NCBI GenBank assembly: GCA_965652295.1
Contig: CBFGTS010000002.1
Location: forward strand, 64,001 to 128,000
Length of the DNA stretch: 64,000 nt
Direction: 5' to 3'
Source of the DNA: an uncultured Haloferula sp.
Lineage (GTDB): Bacteria; Verrucomicrobiota; Verrucomicrobiia; Verrucomicrobiales; Akkermansiaceae
Below are positions 36,147-42,174 of this stretch, one piece after another (position 1 is the first letter of the stretch; each line of letters begins with the position of its first letter). Below the pieces are notes generated by a model. The model was given only the letters and a program-made list of their open reading frames with translations, was not told where the DNA came from and made no database searches. Position numbers and translations under genes: made by a program.

Positions 36147-36929
36147 TCAGGCAGCCGCCGGGGTGCCGTGACGAACGAGAAACTCGTCGGCCAGTGAAAG
36201 GTAACTGGTCGCACCGGCGCCGGATGGGTCGTGCTCAAGGATGGTCCGGGCGTGGCTCGGAGCCTCGCTGATGCGGACCGTGCGCGGGATGACGGTGCGG
36301 TAGAGCTCCTCGGGGAAATAGTTCTTCACCTCCTCAATGACCTGGCGGGAAAGATTCGTCCGGTTGTCGAACATCGTCATCACGATGCCTTCGATCCGCA
36401 GATCAGGACTGGCACCGCTCTGGCGGATTTCGTCGATGACCCGGACGATTTTTGCGAGCCCCTCAAGGCCGTACCATTCGCATTGCAAGGGCACCATCAC
36501 TTCATCGGCCGCAGCCAGGGCGGAGGTCATCAGCACGCCGAGCGAGGGCGGAGTGTCGAGGATACAGTAGTCAAAAAGGTCGTTCGGTTTCAGCCCCTGC
36601 AGGATGCCGCGCAGGCGGGTGAGGTGGTCATCGCTGCGGGCGAGCTCGATTTCCACCCCGGCGAGATCCATGTGCGATGGGATCATCCACAGCCGCTCGC
36701 GGCCGGTCTCGCGGATGGTCTGCCGCACGTCGTGATCACCGATCAGCGAAGGATACACCGTGTCCTCGCCCTCGCATTCGATGCCGAGTCCGCTGGTGGT
36801 GTTCGCCTGCGGGTCGAGGTCGATGAGCAGCACGCGCTGGCCGCGGGCGGCGAGTGCGGCGGAGAGGTTCAGCGCGGTGGTGGTTTTACCCACGCCACCT
36901 TTTTGGTTTCCGACGGCAACGACCTTCAT
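36147..36929 (-). CDS. parA: ParA/Soj family ATPase
   Basis: NQKGGVGKTTT, DLDPQAN, DTPPSLG and PLQCEWYGLEGL motifs; no adjacent parB. Confidence 0.9.
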   Translation of the reverse strand: MKVVAVGNQKGGVGKTTTALNLSAALAARGQRVLLIDLDPQANTTSGLGIECEGEDTVYPSLIGDHDVRQTIRETGRERLWMIPSHMDLAGVEIELARSDDHLTRLRGILQGLKPNDLFDYCILDTPPSLGVLMTSALAAADEVMVPLQCEWYGLEGLAKIVRVIDEIRQSGASPDLRIEGIVMTMFDNRTNLSRQVIEEVKNYFPEELYRTVIPRTVRISEAPSHARTILEHDPSGAGATSYLSLADEFLVRHGTPAAA

Positions 36930-37054
36930 TTCTTCAGCGGGCGGCAGCATTCCGATCCGCGGGCGGGGTGGCAAACAAAACCGGGACCGATCTCCAAATC
37001 ATGCCGCGGTGGTTTTGCTGGCCACCGCCTCCCGGGCATGGCGAAACAACCGGC

Positions 37055-39919
37055 GTGCGCGAGTGGACGAAAGACCGGATCCGCAAGGAGGCGGCGTGGC
37101 AGATCTTCAAGGAAGGCGAGCGGCTGGTGGAAAGCGGCGCGGTGCCCGAGGTGAGCTGCCGCAACGGCATCGTCTCCGGCCTCTTCGTTCAGGGCAAACA
37201 ACGCATCCGGACGGTTGTCCGGACCGCGGGGGTGTTGGAGGTGGACTGCCAGTGCGCCGAGAATCGCTCCACCGGTGCGGTCTGCCGACACGCGGTGGCT
37301 CTGATGCTTTCCCTGCTGAAGGAGAACGATCGGCCGACCGCGCGGACACTACAGCCGGCACCCGCTCCGATTCCGGTTCGTGCCTCCGAGGTCCAGTTCC
37401 CACCGAGCTGGCAGAAGGCGCTCGCTACCGGAAGTCTCGCCGTCCGCATCCGCTGGATCGATGGCGAGCCCGACGATGGCGATGTCGCGCTCTGCCGTTG
37501 GTGGGGCGCAGCCGGGCAGGGGGATCGCGAGCCGGGCCAGCTCCACCTCAACGGGGAAACCCTCGGCACACTTCTGACCGCCCTGGAGTTCCACACGCGG
37601 CTTCATGGACCGGATGGAGAAATCGAAGGCGGAAATATTTTACCGGTGACGCTCACCGAAAGCCGACGCTCCGAGGGTGGGCTTGAGTTGGCGTGGAAAC
37701 CCGACGGACGCCGATGGATCTCCCTTCCCGGATTCACCGGATGGGTGGTCGGTCGCGGATTTGCACGGATCTCGGCAGACGAAATCGAACCGGAAACCAA
37801 GTCGCGGATTCGCGAGCTGCTGGAGACAGGCCGGACGCGGATCCCAGACGAAGCTTTATCCAGCGAACTCCAGCTGTGGCTCGATCTTACCGCCGAGCCG
37901 CGTCCGGGATGGCTCGGCACCATCCGGATCGAAGCCCGACCGCCTGCGGTCCGCATCGAGCTGGAAGGATCTCTGAACGCCCTTGATGCCACGGTGCGGG
38001 TCGATTCCCCATCAGGGAGCGATTTCTCCAAGCTGATCGTCGAGGAACCAGGCCACCGGGAGAGCTTGCTTCGCGAGCTGCGGGATCCCGGCTTCCAAGA
38101 ACGGGAAGGGGGCCGCTGGGTCATCCGCGACCCGGCTGCGGCCACCGATTTCCTCGCCAATCGGTTGGAGTCATGGAAGGCGCGCTGGGCCGTGACGATC
38201 GGGCCCAAGCTCTGCCACGTCCTGAAGTCGCTCCACGTCATCCGTCCCGTCATCGAGCCAGTGCAGGGCGGGGGGCTTGCCGTCGAGATCTCATACCAAA
38301 CCGGTGCCGGAAAGCCGGTGCCGCGGGCGAAAGTGCTGGAGCTCATCCGCTCGGGTCGGACCTCGACGAAAACCTCGTCCGGAGCCCAAGTCGTGGTAGC
38401 CCGAGAGGTCTACGAGGATTTCGAGCCCCTCGCCGCCGACCTCGGAATCGCAGGCCCGGAGGGCCGAATTCAACTCGATCCGGCGCGACTTCATTGTTTA
38501 CGTGAATTTCGTGGAAAAAATCACTCTTCCCTCATTTCGAGCGATCTAAGAATTACTCGGCCCGAGCTGAATGGATTCACCCTCCGCGACTACCAGTCGG
38601 AAGGCGTCGCTTGGCTGGTGGATCGCTTGAGCATGCTTGGGGGGGCTCTTTTAGCCGATGAAATGGGCCTCGGAAAAACCGTCCAGACCATCGGCGCCAT
38701 GGCAGCCCTCCGGAAAGCGTCGCCCGGTTGGAAGTCGCTGATCGTGGTGCCCAGCTCCTTGCTCGCGAACTGGGAAGCGGAGCTCGAACGGTTCGCACCG
38801 GAGCTGCGGGTGGTGCGCCTCCACGGAGCCGATCGCGACGAGCGGCGCGACCAGGAAGCCGACGTGGTAATCACCAGCTACGGCACTGTTGTGCGCGACC
38901 TCGCGTTTCACATCCGCGCCGGCTACTCGTTGATGGTCATGGATGAAGCCGGAGCCATCCGAAACCCTTCCAGTCAGACCTCGAAATCCGTCGCCAAGAT
39001 CCCCGCAAAGAGCCGGCTCGCCCTCAGCGGAACGCCGGTGGAGAACCGCCTGCTCGACCTCTGGTCCATTTTCCGGGTCGTCGCCCCGGGATATCTTGGC
39101 TCAAAAGACGATTTTGCCGCCCGCTACACCGATGGCGGCGCGGAAGCCAGAAGGCTTTCGGCGCGGGTGGCTCCGTTCGTTTTGCGGCGAACCAAGTCCG
39201 AGGTCGCCAAGGATTTGCCCGAAAAGTCGGTTTCGGACGTCGTCCTTGAACTCGGACCCGACGAGCGGCGGATCTACCAGGAGATTGCCCAAGCCGGACT
39301 GGCACGCATGGAAGCGATGAAGAGCGAGTCCGCCGCCCGGCTGCATCTCCTAACGGTGCTCCTGCGACTCCGGCAACTCTGCCTCAGTCCGAGCCTCCTC
39401 AATCCCGACTGGAGCCGCGGACCCAAATCCGAATGGCTCTCGGATTTTCTCCGTGAGCGCGCCGAACAAGGCAAAAAGACGCTCGTTTTCAGTCAATTCG
39501 CCGGGTTTTTACGAGAAGCACAAAAAAATATAACCGACGATCACGGAGCAGTATTTCGGCTCGATGGTTCGACCGTGGACCGGGGCGAGCGGGTGAAACG
39601 GTTCCAGCAGCAACCTGGGCCGGCGGTGTTTCTGATCAGCCTCAAAGCGGGTGGATACGGACTCAACCTGACCGCCGCCGACGCCGTGGTGCACATGGAC
39701 CCGTGGTGGAATCCCGCCGCCGAAAGCCAGGCCAACGACCGGGCCCACCGTATCGGCCAAACCTTACCGGTGATGGTTTACCGACTCTTGATCCGTGATT
39801 CCGTCGAACAGCGCGTGCGCCGCCTCCAAGACGCCAAACGCGCCCTTATCGAGGGCATCAATGGTGGCGACGCCGGCCAAGGCTGGTTGCAGGAGGACCT
39901 GGCGGGCTTGTTGCGGTGA
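37055..39919 (+). CDS. SNF2/SWI2-family helicase with SWIM zinc finger
   Basis: CQC…C.H SWIM motif; LADEMGLGKT, DEAG, SGTPVEN, SLKAGGYGLNL and QANDRAHRIGQ. GTG start inferred. Confidence 0.92.
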   Translation: MREWTKDRIRKEAAWQIFKEGERLVESGAVPEVSCRNGIVSGLFVQGKQRIRTVVRTAGVLEVDCQCAENRSTGAVCRHAVALMLSLLKENDRPTARTLQPAPAPIPVRASEVQFPPSWQKALATGSLAVRIRWIDGEPDDGDVALCRWWGAAGQGDREPGQLHLNGETLGTLLTALEFHTRLHGPDGEIEGGNILPVTLTESRRSEGGLELAWKPDGRRWISLPGFTGWVVGRGFARISADEIEPETKSRIRELLETGRTRIPDEALSSELQLWLDLTAEPRPGWLGTIRIEARPPAVRIELEGSLNALDATVRVDSPSGSDFSKLIVEEPGHRESLLRELRDPGFQEREGGRWVIRDPAAATDFLANRLESWKARWAVTIGPKLCHVLKSLHVIRPVIEPVQGGGLAVEISYQTGAGKPVPRAKVLELIRSGRTSTKTSSGAQVVVAREVYEDFEPLAADLGIAGPEGRIQLDPARLHCLREFRGKNHSSLISSDLRITRPELNGFTLRDYQSEGVAWLVDRLSMLGGALLADEMGLGKTVQTIGAMAALRKASPGWKSLIVVPSSLLANWEAELERFAPELRVVRLHGADRDERRDQEADVVITSYGTVVRDLAFHIRAGYSLMVMDEAGAIRNPSSQTSKSVAKIPAKSRLALSGTPVENRLLDLWSIFRVVAPGYLGSKDDFAARYTDGGAEARRLSARVAPFVLRRTKSEVAKDLPEKSVSDVVLELGPDERRIYQEIAQAGLARMEAMKSESAARLHLLTVLLRLRQLCLSPSLLNPDWSRGPKSEWLSDFLRERAEQGKKTLVFSQFAGFLREAQKNITDDHGAVFRLDGSTVDRGERVKRFQQQPGPAVFLISLKAGGYGLNLTAADAVVHMDPWWNPAAESQANDRAHRIGQTLPVMVYRLLIRDSVEQRVRRLQDAKRALIEGINGGDAGQGWLQEDLAGLLR

Positions 39920-40301
39920 AGCCTTGCCTCGGAAGGTTCGAGGGCGGTTCTCGTAGAGCGTACCCTCCGGCGAAATCGCGACAGGGTTTCTCAGAGACGG
40001 CATACGGATGCGCTTCACGGGCGATCAGGGCGCCTTTCTCCCGCGCGGCTCTCATCATCTCGTAGTCCAGCTGCAGCCGCAGCCAGAATCCTTGAGAGGT
40101 CCCGAAATAACGACTCAGGCGCAGATCGTGTTCCGGCGTGCACCGACGACGGCCCTTCTTCATGTCGGTCAGGTGAGGGGAGGGGATGCCGGTTTGGCGA
40201 GCGACTTCCGCCTGAGAAACCGCCCACTCCTCAAGAGTCTCCCGCAACGTCTCCGCGAAGAAGTTCACCAACGGCAGGAGTTCAGAGTCTTCTTTCTTCA
40301 T
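39858..40301 (-). CDS. HigA-like Xre-family antitoxin/regulator
   Basis: SQAEVARQTGI…KGRRRCTPEHDLRLSRYFGTSQGFWLRLQLDYE matches the HigA signature (RL.RYFGTS..FWL.LQ..Y). Confidence 0.85.
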   Translation of the reverse strand: MKKEDSELLPLVNFFAETLRETLEEWAVSQAEVARQTGIPSPHLTDMKKGRRRCTPEHDLRLSRYFGTSQGFWLRLQLDYEMMRAAREKGALIAREAHPYAVSEKPCRDFAGGYALREPPSNLPRQGFTATSPPGPPATSLGRRRHH

Positions 40302-40990
40302 TCGCCCAGCCTTTCCCGCGCCCGGGCGTCCATTCGAACCGGGATCGTGTCGATGGGAGCCATCACGCCTTCAGGCGTGCGCACCACATTCGCAGGCCGA
40401 AGGTCGAAGACCGCTACATCATCCCGGGCGAATGCCAGCGAATCCTCATACCCGATCGAAAAACGGTCCGGCAGCTGCCGAAAGCCAAGCCTATCCACCA
40501 TCATGGTCACGATTTCCTCCCGAGTGGCAGCTTCTCCTGCAAGGTGCGGCTGACGGGTCAAAATTCGCGGGCGTGTGCGCTCACCGGCAACTCCGACGAA
40601 TGAAACCAAGTCCGCGAATAGCTCGTTGTGAAGCTCCATCCGTTCCAGGTATTCAAGAGGAAGTGCCGGCACAAGGGAGGGTGAGCCAAGCTCGAACGAA
40701 ACCGCATACCCGGCAGCCGCGGGCTTGGTGAATTTGAGCCAAGACGCCTCGTCCTCGATGAAAATCAAATCGTGCTCCCTGCCGCCTTCTTTCAGCGGTT
40801 GGAGGCCTTCGAAGAAGCATCCTGCTTCTTCCGCCCAGCGAACGAGCCGGCGGAAACTTTCATCGTAAATGGACCATCCGTCGATTTCGCCATGCGGTCC
40901 ACCTGGGCGTAGGCGTTCGCCGAGGTTGTGACGGGCCTCGACGAGCGAACGGTCGCGATTCGGGTCAGGTAGGCGCTCTCCTTCATTCAA
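40298..40990 (-). CDS. Polyvalent-protein-type Ser/Thr/Tyr kinase (Kinase-PolyVal-like)
   Basis: GGREH (P-loop), WLKFTK, PLEYLERMELHNELFAD, ILTRQP, DLRPANV (catalytic loop), PID. Start uncertain (TTG 40990 or ATG 41056). Confidence 0.7.
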   Translation of the reverse strand: MNEGERLPDPNRDRSLVEARHNLGERLRPGGPHGEIDGWSIYDESFRRLVRWAEEAGCFFEGLQPLKEGGREHDLIFIEDEASWLKFTKPAAAGYAVSFELGSPSLVPALPLEYLERMELHNELFADLVSFVGVAGERTRPRILTRQPHLAGEAATREEIVTMMVDRLGFRQLPDRFSIGYEDSLAFARDDVAVFDLRPANVVRTPEGVMAPIDTIPVRMDARARERLGE

Positions 40991-41206
40991 CTGCCGAGAA
41001 AATAGGGCAGGCCCAGCGCGTGCGCCAGCAATAATCCGCCCTGCGCAAAATGTCATCCACGACTCGCCCCTAAAAGAACGACCTGTCGACGCGGACAACC
41101 ACGTAGGCGTTGCTGAAGGTTCGTGGATCTGAAGAAGATGTCCACGAGAGGCGAGAAGCTTTCTGAGCTGATTGCAGTTCTGCCTGAAAGAACGAAGGAA
41201 TTTTAG

Positions 41207-41234
41207 ATTCCGCATTACATACATTGTAACAAGT
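41207..41234 (-). other. Candidate chromosomal dif (XerCD) site
   Basis: Minus strand ACTTGTTACAA-TGTATG-TAATGCGGAAT (11-6-11) lies in an AT-rich intergenic gap where skew and KOPS polarity invert. Confidence 0.6.
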
Positions 41235-41274
41235 ATTCCAACGGCTGCGGAAGAAACGCGGATGCCCGGCCTTC

Positions 41275-42174
41275 TTACCGCGGCACCAGCTTCGCGGCGG
41301 TTTGCGGATCCAGATTGAAGCCGCCGGTTTCGAAGTCCTTCACGGGCTCTCCTTCCTGAGCGATGCGCTCGAACGCGATGACCGGTTTGGTGCCCTCGAT
41401 CTCCGACATCAGGTAAACGCGCAGCGCAAACGCCTCCTTGCCGGTCGAGCCCTCCATTGGCTTCACCGTGTAAACGATTTCATTCCGTCCATCGACGGCA
41501 CCGCCGAGCACCACCTCGGCCTCCTTGGTGTTGGCGAAGCGATGGCGGCTGACTCGGTTGATCTGGACGTTCACCTCGCGCCCCGGACAGAAGGCATAGA
41601 CCTTGGCGATGTATTTCGCCGCATTCACGGCCATCGGCACTGGCGGCACGGTGCCCGGGGCGCGGGCTTCGGGGATGTCGTTGAGGTAGCTGTAATCGCC
41701 CGCCTCCAGCTCTTTCCGCACGGCGGGCAGCTCGGCGAGGTTCACGAAATCCGCCCGGTCGTAGAGCCAGCGGCCACCGCTATTTACGAAGGACAATGCG
41801 AGGAGGTTGTTCGTCGGGTTTCCATCGATGCCGAAATTCACAGGGCCGAACCAGACGCCTTTGGCGGTCGCTCCGGCTTGGGAAAGATGGATCAGCTTCA
41901 ATTTCTCAAGGCTCGGCGGCGGCACCGGCACCTCGAAAATGGCGGTTGGAAACGGTCGCTTCTCGGAAACGATGCGGTTTTTCACCTCCATCTGCCGGTG
42001 CGGTGCGGTGAGCGCCTGCCACTGGCGCGCATCCTTGCGGACAAAGGCATTGCGCCAGCCGTGGTAGACCTTGGCCAGCTTAGCACCCAGTTCAGCGTCA
42101 GGCGCTTGCGCCTGCGCCACGCCGGAGCTGAGAGCGAGGAACGCGCCGACGATGAGAGTTTTGCAGCGATTCAT
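41275..42174 (-). CDS. Exported hypothetical protein
   Basis: 299-aa ORF with signal peptide (…GVAQAQA) and host-like codon usage. Confidence 0.8.
   Translation of the reverse strand: MNRCKTLIVGAFLALSSGVAQAQAPDAELGAKLAKVYHGWRNAFVRKDARQWQALTAPHRQMEVKNRIVSEKRPFPTAIFEVPVPPPSLEKLKLIHLSQAGATAKGVWFGPVNFGIDGNPTNNLLALSFVNSGGRWLYDRADFVNLAELPAVRKELEAGDYSYLNDIPEARAPGTVPPVPMAVNAAKYIAKVYAFCPGREVNVQINRVSRHRFANTKEAEVVLGGAVDGRNEIVYTVKPMEGSTGKEAFALRVYLMSEIEGTKPVIAFERIAQEGEPVKDFETGGFNLDPQTAAKLVPR

Follow-up and report, generated by a model that had tools for sequence, protein, structure and literature searches.

A Kinase-PolyVal mini-kinase gene beside a predicted dif site contains a conserved out-of-frame gene that may encode its antitoxin

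The window analyzed here is a 64,000-nucleotide (nt) stretch of the genome of an uncultured Haloferula sp. (Akkermansiaceae, Verrucomicrobiota; GenBank assembly GCA_965652295.1, contig CBFGTS010000002.1, positions 64,001 to 128,000). Beside a predicted dif site it carries, on the minus strand, a gene for a mini-kinase of the Kinase-PolyVal family followed by a gene for a HigA-family Xre protein. A preliminary description of this DNA had taken the two for a kinase-toxin/HigA-antitoxin pair joined by an ATGA overlap, and the coordinates confirmed the overlap: the TGA of the kinase gene and the ATG of higA share positions 40298 to 40301. Contigs from three separate studies bridged the junction with 0 to 2 differences, so it is not an assembly artefact. 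The block had also been described as less GC rich (guanine plus cytosine) than its neighbors. The drop is there but slight and weak: GC content was 0.600, a value equaled or undercut by 9.4% of 4,353 1-kb genome windows. A third gene, nested in the +1 frame of the kinase gene and conserved, had been missed. The features of the block are as follows.

40298..40990, minus strand: Kinase-PolyVal mini-kinase of 230 amino acids (aa), likely TTG start (PF18762, invariant residues, AlphaFold2 model)
40777, 40735, 40405, 40390 and 40351, minus strand: kinase residues E72, K86, D196, N201 and D214, respectively
40792..40986, minus strand: nested +1-frame open reading frame (ORF) of 64 aa, candidate antitoxin or regulatory subunit (conservation, constraint, complex model, composition)
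40999..41004, minus strand: -10-like hexamer, 8 nt upstream of the TTG (TAnnnT enrichment in close loci)
39858..40301, minus strand: HigA-family Xre protein without HigB, likely an orphan (TIGR02607, DNA alignment to relatives G022 and G012, independent contig)

The kinase matched the Pfam Kinase-PolyVal profile (PF18762) with 30.9 bits against a cut-off of 27 (252-aa version), and its Atlas neighbors (0.97) lay in PF18762 clusters. E72 and H73 of the GGREH loop, K86, Q147, D196, N201 and D214 were invariant in 69 aligned homologues, and these residues, among them the Glu before strand 2 and the conserved Gln, can probably be matched to the family description in PMC5512222. Judged from the alignment, the residues for ATP binding and phosphotransfer are intact, and protein kinase activity is predicted. 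The proposed kinase-fold ORF with an intact GGREH loop, Lys and Asp residues was thus borne out by both profile and alignment. Its upstream end, which had been placed at ATG 41056, was not: close homologues align from TTG 40990, giving 230 aa, and this TTG is therefore most likely the start. AlphaFold2 folded the kinase alone with a predicted local distance difference test score (pLDDT) of 92. The C-terminal kinase subdomain is missing; the chain stops 16 residues past D214, and the model has only one strand and one short helix there. Fold searches with the kinase returned weak, generic kinase matches (best Z score 6.4, root mean square deviation 4.0, 128 residues aligned; Foldseek E value 0.004) and singled out no particular kinase family. 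No HipA or HipS match was found in Pfam or NCBIfam and no sequence match in the PDB, and PADLOC 2.0 gave no match for the kinase or the nested protein at E values up to 1. Named homologues of the kinase come from Luteolibacter and Akkermansiaceae. The PF18762 profile was matched by 2,310 clusters at 50% identity, and the family also has members outside Verrucomicrobiota, in Bacteroidota and phages.

The nested ORF covers kinase codons 2 to 66, and its stop codon overlaps codon 66 just before the GGREH loop. Each of the close kinase homologues had a +1 ATG 4 nt past the TTG, opening a 64-codon ORF. A TTG 4 nt before the nested ATG was the commonest layout (22 of 51 tallied loci), and the two starts were 4 to 10 nt apart in many stand-alone copies. 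The ORF was present in 37 of the 38 loci whose match reached the kinase N terminus. In a set of 64 kinase domains with identities as low as about 25%, the +1 frame was stop-free in 63 and had an ATG in 59, compared with 29 and 13 stop-free domains for +1 control windows further downstream and 23, with one ATG, for the +2 frame. The five domains lacking the ATG comprised two with Val-started ORFs, two frameshifted domains with the ORF in the shifted frame, and L029, which has no ORF. A further 40 out-of-sample loci, many from one clade, had not been used for any nested-ORF profile; here the +1 frame was stop-free in all 40 and had an ATG in 39, whereas the +2 frame was stop-free in 11 and never had one. 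Combined, the +1 frame was stop-free in 103 of 104 domains, 98 of them with an ATG. When homologues were grouped into 23 clusters below 45% identity, 20 clusters had the ORF versus 6.9 expected from synonymous recoding, a result seen in 0 of 200,000 simulations.

Selection on the second frame was also apparent in nucleotide diversity. In 19 intact close genes, third-position diversity was 0.316 over codons 2 to 66 and 0.622 over codons 67 to 228, while first and second positions were unchanged (0.295 and 0.210 in the overlap versus 0.309 and 0.246 beyond it). Since third-position diversity was halved with first and second positions unaffected, both frames appear to be under constraint. Fourfold-degenerate sites behaved likewise (0.30, n = 14, in the overlap versus 0.67, n = 37, beyond; P = 1.3e-5), and the +1 frame was stop-free over the overlap in 19 of 19 close genes, compared with 0, 0 and 1 of 19 for control windows. 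An RNA structure or element was rejected as the source of the constraint, as no unusual fold (z = -1.3) and no Rfam match was found. A programmed -1 frameshift that would lead from the nested ORF into the kinase core, yielding a fusion, was rejected as well: a canonical slippery heptamer was present in none of 38 loci, a test that covered canonical heptamers and from which non-canonical sites may differ, and the position of the stop varies. Upstream of the TTG, a -10-like TAnnnT occurred at a distance of 5 to 10 nt in 20 of 26 close loci, compared with 11 of 520 background positions; no full sigma-70 consensus was found upstream of the kinase. The hexamer suggests that the module may have its own, nearly leaderless transcript; no RNA data set was among those listed as containing the sequence. 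These data indicate that the nested gene is very probably real.

The kinase and the nested ORF were found in very different settings. Within the family, 118 of 401 genomes had a match to the kinase profile and 84 of 401 a match to the nested-ORF profile; the latter also picked out 59 called proteins in public sets, one of them annotated as hypothetical. The closest kinases (63 to 79%) stand alone at many unrelated sites, such as before dnaE, after NAD synthetase, after superoxide dismutase and in prophage-like elements. Three of the closest (69 to 79%; L069, L075 and L147) lie directly behind rolling-circle Rep-like genes, L147 in a small element that also has an excisionase-like ORF further downstream. 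Elsewhere in the genome under study, a kinase with a nested ORF is inserted in frame in a NAD-dependent DNA ligase (G000:C14:14350-14966; L025, L170). Other ligase inserts are L016, L023, L024, L026, L223, L226, L227 and L229 to L234, and every ligase-inserted kinase copy examined has its own +1 nested ORF. In one ligase (L224), the nested ORF has survived an in-frame loss of the kinase core. A polyvalent locus (G038:C47; L010, L161, L173, L176) has several kinase domains and a MuF-C domain, and each of the three domains tested there carries a different +1 nested ORF. Because the kinase frame must be read through in ligase and polyvalent genes, this DNA is dual-coding. The third PolyVal kinase of the genome (G000:C8:102477-102998; L174) has a frameshift that separates its N terminus from its core, and its nested ORF is Val-started. 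By these comparisons, both frames are constrained, and they accompany each other in copies of all three kinds (stand-alone, ligase-inserted and polyvalent). No kinase relatives were found in the phage records, plasmid records and viral contigs searched.

At three loci (L005; L148 and L149, in G283:C1 and G236:C1), the host gene upstream of the kinase cassette has its 3′ end duplicated, so that the cassette is flanked by the duplication; this gene is pyruvate carboxylase-like in two of them. Such duplicated flanks suggest insertion by one-sided homologous recombination.

The 64-aa nested protein is basic (isoelectric point 10.7) and Ser/Thr-rich. Across 59 members, the composition is 23% Ser/Thr and 19% Lys/Arg, and the second half is of low complexity. 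The members, distant ones included, have two helices in common, one basic and a second capped by Ser/Thr, as well as a near-invariant Gln. The protein had no match in Pfam, PHROGs, PADLOC or PDB sequences; its best Atlas value (0.81) was below the useful range, and 36 members searched against Pfam gave scattered chance hits alone. When the kinase was modeled with nested residues 1 to 45, the complex scored 0.88 in three runs, while the best of three controls scored 0.02; the score mark is reached by 116 of 157 solved pairs and 2 of 215 mismatched pairs, counts that apply roughly to models built, as here, from custom alignments. Runs agreed in at least 88% of contacts (117 to 121 contacts; partner pLDDT at least 79), and neither chain has a solved relative by sequence. 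The modeled interface comprises kinase residues 67 to 84, 105 to 107, 125 to 128, 148 to 154, 163 to 168, 178 to 183 and 198 to 211. It avoids residues 1 to 66, which are encoded by the shared DNA, so the modeled binding does not simply mirror the overlap. The nested protein is thus predicted to bind the kinase core, its first 43 residues wrapping both kinase lobes.

The downstream gene was assigned to the HigA family as the preliminary description had stated (TIGR02607, 56.9 bits against a cut-off of 47.7), but a pairing of kinase toxin and HigA antitoxin was not supported. Recurrence of the pair was sought in genus, family and phylum genomes and in metagenome contigs, with a HigA profile built from genus homologues. 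A same-strand downstream match was found for 2 of the 64 kinase domains, 8 of which had less than 300 nt downstream, with 23 further kinase hits lacking the anchor left out. The two are that of the window and L013 (in G018), in which a stop codon interrupts the kinase and an orphan HigA begins about 245 nt later. None of the 40 further loci, chosen by kinase score and all with at least 500 nt downstream, had a downstream HigA, giving 2 of 104 domains, one of them broken. Conversely, no kinase lay within 1.5 kb of any of the 29 other HigA hits in the genus. The eight closest HigA relatives (59 to 79%) comprise four behind an intact HigB (in G022, G048, G024 and G011), one behind a broken higBA and three orphans. 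In G012 (L134, G012:C232) an internal higB deletion has left the operator palindrome of the intact higBA of G022 (L133, G022:C151) in place. No RelE-fold HigB lies directly upstream of the window HigA, where the gene is the kinase. The palindrome upstream of higBA in G022 was matched at 20 of 20 positions in G012 and 16 of 20 in G048 but at best at 12 of 20 within 39850 to 41300 of the window, and no operator-like palindrome was found upstream of the kinase.

The window higA has also lost its native stop. Its core of about 102 aa ends near 39991, and some 45 further residues overlap the 3′ end of SNF2, a gene on the opposite strand. DNA alignment with G022 and G012 revealed two extra bases before the stop used by G022, which put the native stop 2 nt out of frame; an independent contig had the same letters at this position. 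The 3′ ends of the kinase gene and of higB also showed a weak resemblance at the DNA level, on which no conclusion is based here. In one soil run (X4, record 22), a 92%-identical higA was found whose match starts exactly at ATG 40301 and whose upstream 752 nt did not align with the window. The window HigA is likely an orphan that was joined to the kinase by chance in the slot beside dif. A prophage-like element in another genome (L130-L131; G023:C35:24000-58000) has an integrase, higB and after it two higA genes, large virion-like proteins, a small-terminase-like gene and, about 18 kb away from the higBA, a stand-alone kinase.

On balance, we think that the kinase is a toxin in a self-contained module whose antitoxin is the out-of-frame nested protein, with higA a probable chance neighbor. 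The kinase-toxin part of the earlier proposal is thus still favored, while HigA as its partner is not. A single, nearly leaderless mRNA would carry a weak TTG start for the kinase and, 4 nt later, an ATG for the small protein. Leaderless mRNAs prefer AUG starts, and favoring of the ATG over the TTG would keep the small protein in excess. The small protein would bind the kinase core and inhibit it; were it lost or outcompeted, the kinase would phosphorylate a host or phage protein. With the antidote within the kinase's own DNA, the module could be inserted at any site, in-frame positions within other proteins included, and insertion boundaries could not part kinase from antidote.

We infer inhibition from the two start codons, the pattern of kinase loss and the need for self-protection that a stand-alone conflict kinase moving between unrelated sites would have. 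Among 106 distinct nested-ORF hits, the kinase was called intact in 78 (two of which carry in-frame core deletions), was broken in 24 and lacked the core in 3, while 1 lay at a contig end; of the 40 out-of-sample kinases, none lacked the +1 frame. Toxin pseudogenization has been described as a loss route in chromosomal toxin-antitoxin (TA) loci (PMC13617665), and a nested ORF kept after kinase loss resembles it, which is a weak pointer. Whether the same holds for the Kinase-PolyVal domain at large, such that every copy is a dual-coding conflict module of a toxic mini-kinase with an overprinted out-of-frame antitoxin, we regard as evenly balanced.

Several points weigh against an antitoxin role or temper the evidence for it. 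The loss asymmetry is weak: the kinase offers mutation a far larger target, a deletion that removes the nested ORF takes the kinase start with it, and 20 of the loci were picked because no kinase was listed, with L126 counted twice. L029 has no +1 ORF, and L165 and L166 lack the ATG. Besides the exclusion of the 23 hits without anchor from the 64-domain count and the rough calibration of the complex score, all loci examined come from one phylum (Verrucomicrobiota). The nested protein has no DNA-binding domain match in Pfam, so that the usual TA autoregulation is not evident. Finally, the modeled interface covers the Gly loop (69 to 71) and residues 198 to 200 but not K86, D196, N201 or D214, and because these catalytic residues are not in the listed interface, inhibition cannot be told from activation.

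Activation is accordingly the main rival: the nested protein might be an obligate activating or substrate-recruiting subunit that replaces the missing C-terminal subdomain, making a two-chain effector. In this family the C-terminal kinase subdomain is gone altogether (PMC5512222), the large modeled interface includes C-lobe residues 125 to 128, 148 to 154, 178 to 183 and 205 to 211, and near-universal co-occurrence would suit an activating subunit equally well. We nevertheless consider it unlikely, as the kinase folds confidently alone, the ATG and TTG starts hint at an excess of the small protein rather than a 1:1 ratio, and nested ORFs outlast loss of the core. Less probable still is a nested ORF that acts mainly in cis, lowering kinase levels by start competition or translational coupling, or whose product is a substrate or decoy. 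The close spacing of the two starts in stand-alone copies would suit a cis effect, and the Ser/Thr- and Lys/Arg-rich composition with its low-complexity half a substrate or decoy. This reading, however, fits poorly with the two-helix pattern and near-invariant Gln of distant members and with the passing binding model, and start competition is inapplicable inside ligase and polyvalent genes, where the ORF is kept.

An antitoxin role for HigA toward the kinase, or a HipB-like role as third component repressing the operon in this lineage, appears very doubtful. The clean ATGA overlap joins a native kinase stop to a native HigA start, contigs of three studies contain the junction, a second orphan HigA follows the broken kinase of G018, and hipBST offers a precedent for a kinase, a small inhibitor and a helix-turn-helix (HTH) protein together (PMC10627512). 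Against this stand the linkage in just 2 of 104 domains, the higBA affiliation of the HigA relatives, the lost higA stop, the lack of an operator-like palindrome upstream of the kinase and the failure of the sequence upstream of the soil higA to align with the kinase. In enzymatic antitoxin systems, the antitoxin neutralizes the toxin by a modification such as phosphorylation, and the roles could in principle be reversed here, with the Ser/Thr-rich basic protein, modeled near the cleft, as a toxin neutralized by the kinase. Of the 106 nested-ORF hits, at least 27 are without an intact kinase, and of the two start codons that of the small protein is the stronger, which makes this arrangement hard to credit. 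Equally hard to credit is an untranslated +1 ORF, a by-product of the kinase sequence or an RNA or DNA element. Stop-free +1 frames are common in GC-rich genes, with a null probability per sequence of 0.41 for the close genes and 0.12 to 0.96 in the cluster test, and this tempers any single ORF as evidence for a gene. The cluster test, ATG conservation, site constraint and passing complex model nonetheless contradict a by-product, as do the RNA fold and Rfam results for an element.

The surroundings of the block bear on how it may have been acquired. The features on either side are as follows.

41207..41234, plus strand: predicted chromosomal dif (GC skew, KOPS-like motifs, genus conservation)
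36854..39919, plus strand: SNF2/SWIM helicase gene, left flank (directly after dif in 6 relatives)
41275..42174, minus strand: conserved gene for a 299-aa hypothetical protein, right flank, synteny anchor (in 33 of 35 genus genomes)

The 28-mer dif lies 217 nt from the kinase start, in agreement with the candidate site about 220 bp away that had been noted before. The cumulative GC-skew maximum is at 38866, 2.3 kb from dif. KOPS-like motifs switch in orientation across the site on the contig (19:5 to its left, 5:51 to its right). The genome has one other match (19 of 27). Of 29 genus loci located through the right-flank gene, 11 keep dif at 21 or more of 28 positions. The location of dif is correlated with the shift in skew (PMC3025954), and 41207 to 41234 is a well-supported prediction for the chromosomal dif. 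SNF2 follows dif directly in 6 of the 11 dif-bearing loci; in G004 a 79-aa ORF lies between them, and G008 and G003 have other neighbors. In G021, dif and a dif-like copy enclose 1.8 kb of inserted low-GC DNA (L135; G021:C15, about 81400 to 83200). In G041 an inovirus-like prophage lies between dif and two dif-like copies (L136; G041:C1, about 104450 to 117640), with REP_ORF2-G2P, coat-like, M13 pI/Zot-like and pIV genes and, at the copies, an intact left arm and a changed right arm. This is an Xer-integrating filamentous phage in this verrucomicrobial genus, and the G021 insert shares a short stretch with it. Neither kinase nor HigA occupies the slot in any of the 11 dif-bearing genus loci. 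Taken together, the variable contents mark the dif-SNF2 interval as an insertion hotspot that Xer-exploiting elements use, which supports the suggested acquisition at the terminus. The further suggestion of a TA cassette in an Xer/dif module fared less well. No second dif-like site was found near the block (best match 14 of 27 within 39850 to 41200), so the block is not a dif module and is at most a remnant.

Divergent from SNF2, about 4 kb from dif, is a ParA/Soj-family ATPase gene (36147 to 36974). The ParA/Soj-SNF2 order is the same in G021 and G004, and ParA/Soj is unusual near a terminus.

The kinase with its nested gene is, as far as the literature covered goes, an undescribed dual-coding module. 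An overlapping gene seems to have gone unnoticed throughout a Pfam domain family, and bacteria offer few conserved genes nested on the same strand for which a molecular partner can plausibly be named. If the preferred reading is true, it would be a natural TA system with an antitoxin nested in an alternative frame, every copy bringing its cognate antidote, and would explain how a toxic domain came to be inserted into essential genes such as that for NAD-dependent DNA ligase. The nested ORF gives a direct route to probing an uncharacterized kinase family, and other "solo" conflict enzymes and polyvalent-protein domains are worth screening for out-of-frame partners. The locus also illustrates that a neat toxin-slot layout beside an antitoxin gene can arise by chance juxtaposition.

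Several known systems share parts of this arrangement. Integrative mobile elements exploiting Xer (IMEX)/dif modules and CTX-type elements integrate at dif, and the same slot is occupied in G041 and G021; unlike IMEX, the window block lacks a second dif-like site and replication or morphogenesis genes. Type II higBA systems include the family of the window HigA, which here is without higB, has lost its stop and has no operator match. Interacting products of nested out-of-frame genes are known from the lambda Rz/Rz1 spanins. XLalphas and ALEX are likewise interacting proteins read from one DNA stretch in different frames (PMC1186735), but in neither pair, as described, does a mobile bacterial conflict module encode an enzyme together with its inhibitor. 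HipBST resembles the module in that its kinase toxin is kept in check by a small protein dedicated to this role, and in the presence of an HTH gene (PMC10627512). HipT, however, is a HipA-family kinase, and HipS is encoded by a separate upstream gene and is homologous to the HipA N-terminal subdomain (PMC10627512, PMC8262856), while here there is no HipA or HipS sequence match and the HTH gene is not a conserved part. The parts of the HipA survey considered (PMC8262856) mention neither HigA nor polyvalent kinases.

The closest relative of the enzyme is Kinase-PolyVal itself, described by Iyer et al. in 2017 as a C-terminally reduced kinase of Verrucomicrobia polyvalent proteins and proposed to play a T7-kinase-like role in phage/host conflict (PMC5512222). 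The window kinase belongs to the same family by profile, residues and the missing C-terminal subdomain. The main text of that paper, as far as consulted, does not contain the words "overlapping," "frameshift" or "HigA" and places stand-alone versions in Bacteroidetes; unlike there, stand-alone copies were common in Verrucomicrobiota here and had the nested +1 gene. In the parts of the literature covered, which included few subscription papers and stopped short of the supplementary alignments of PMC5512222, no natural out-of-frame antitoxin nested in a toxin gene was described, and just synthetic entanglement and unrelated nested genes turned up. The nearest precedent is the gene-within-gene TA system of the Rpn proteins (10.1101/2023.05.02.539157), which are mobile and antiphage. 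As in the module proposed here, the antitoxin lies inside the toxin gene and has its own start. In Rpn, the C-terminal domain of the toxin itself serves as antitoxin and its sequence is found in both products, whereas the candidate antitoxin of the mini-kinase is an unrelated sequence, read in another frame from the 5′ end of the gene, and its enzyme is a kinase.

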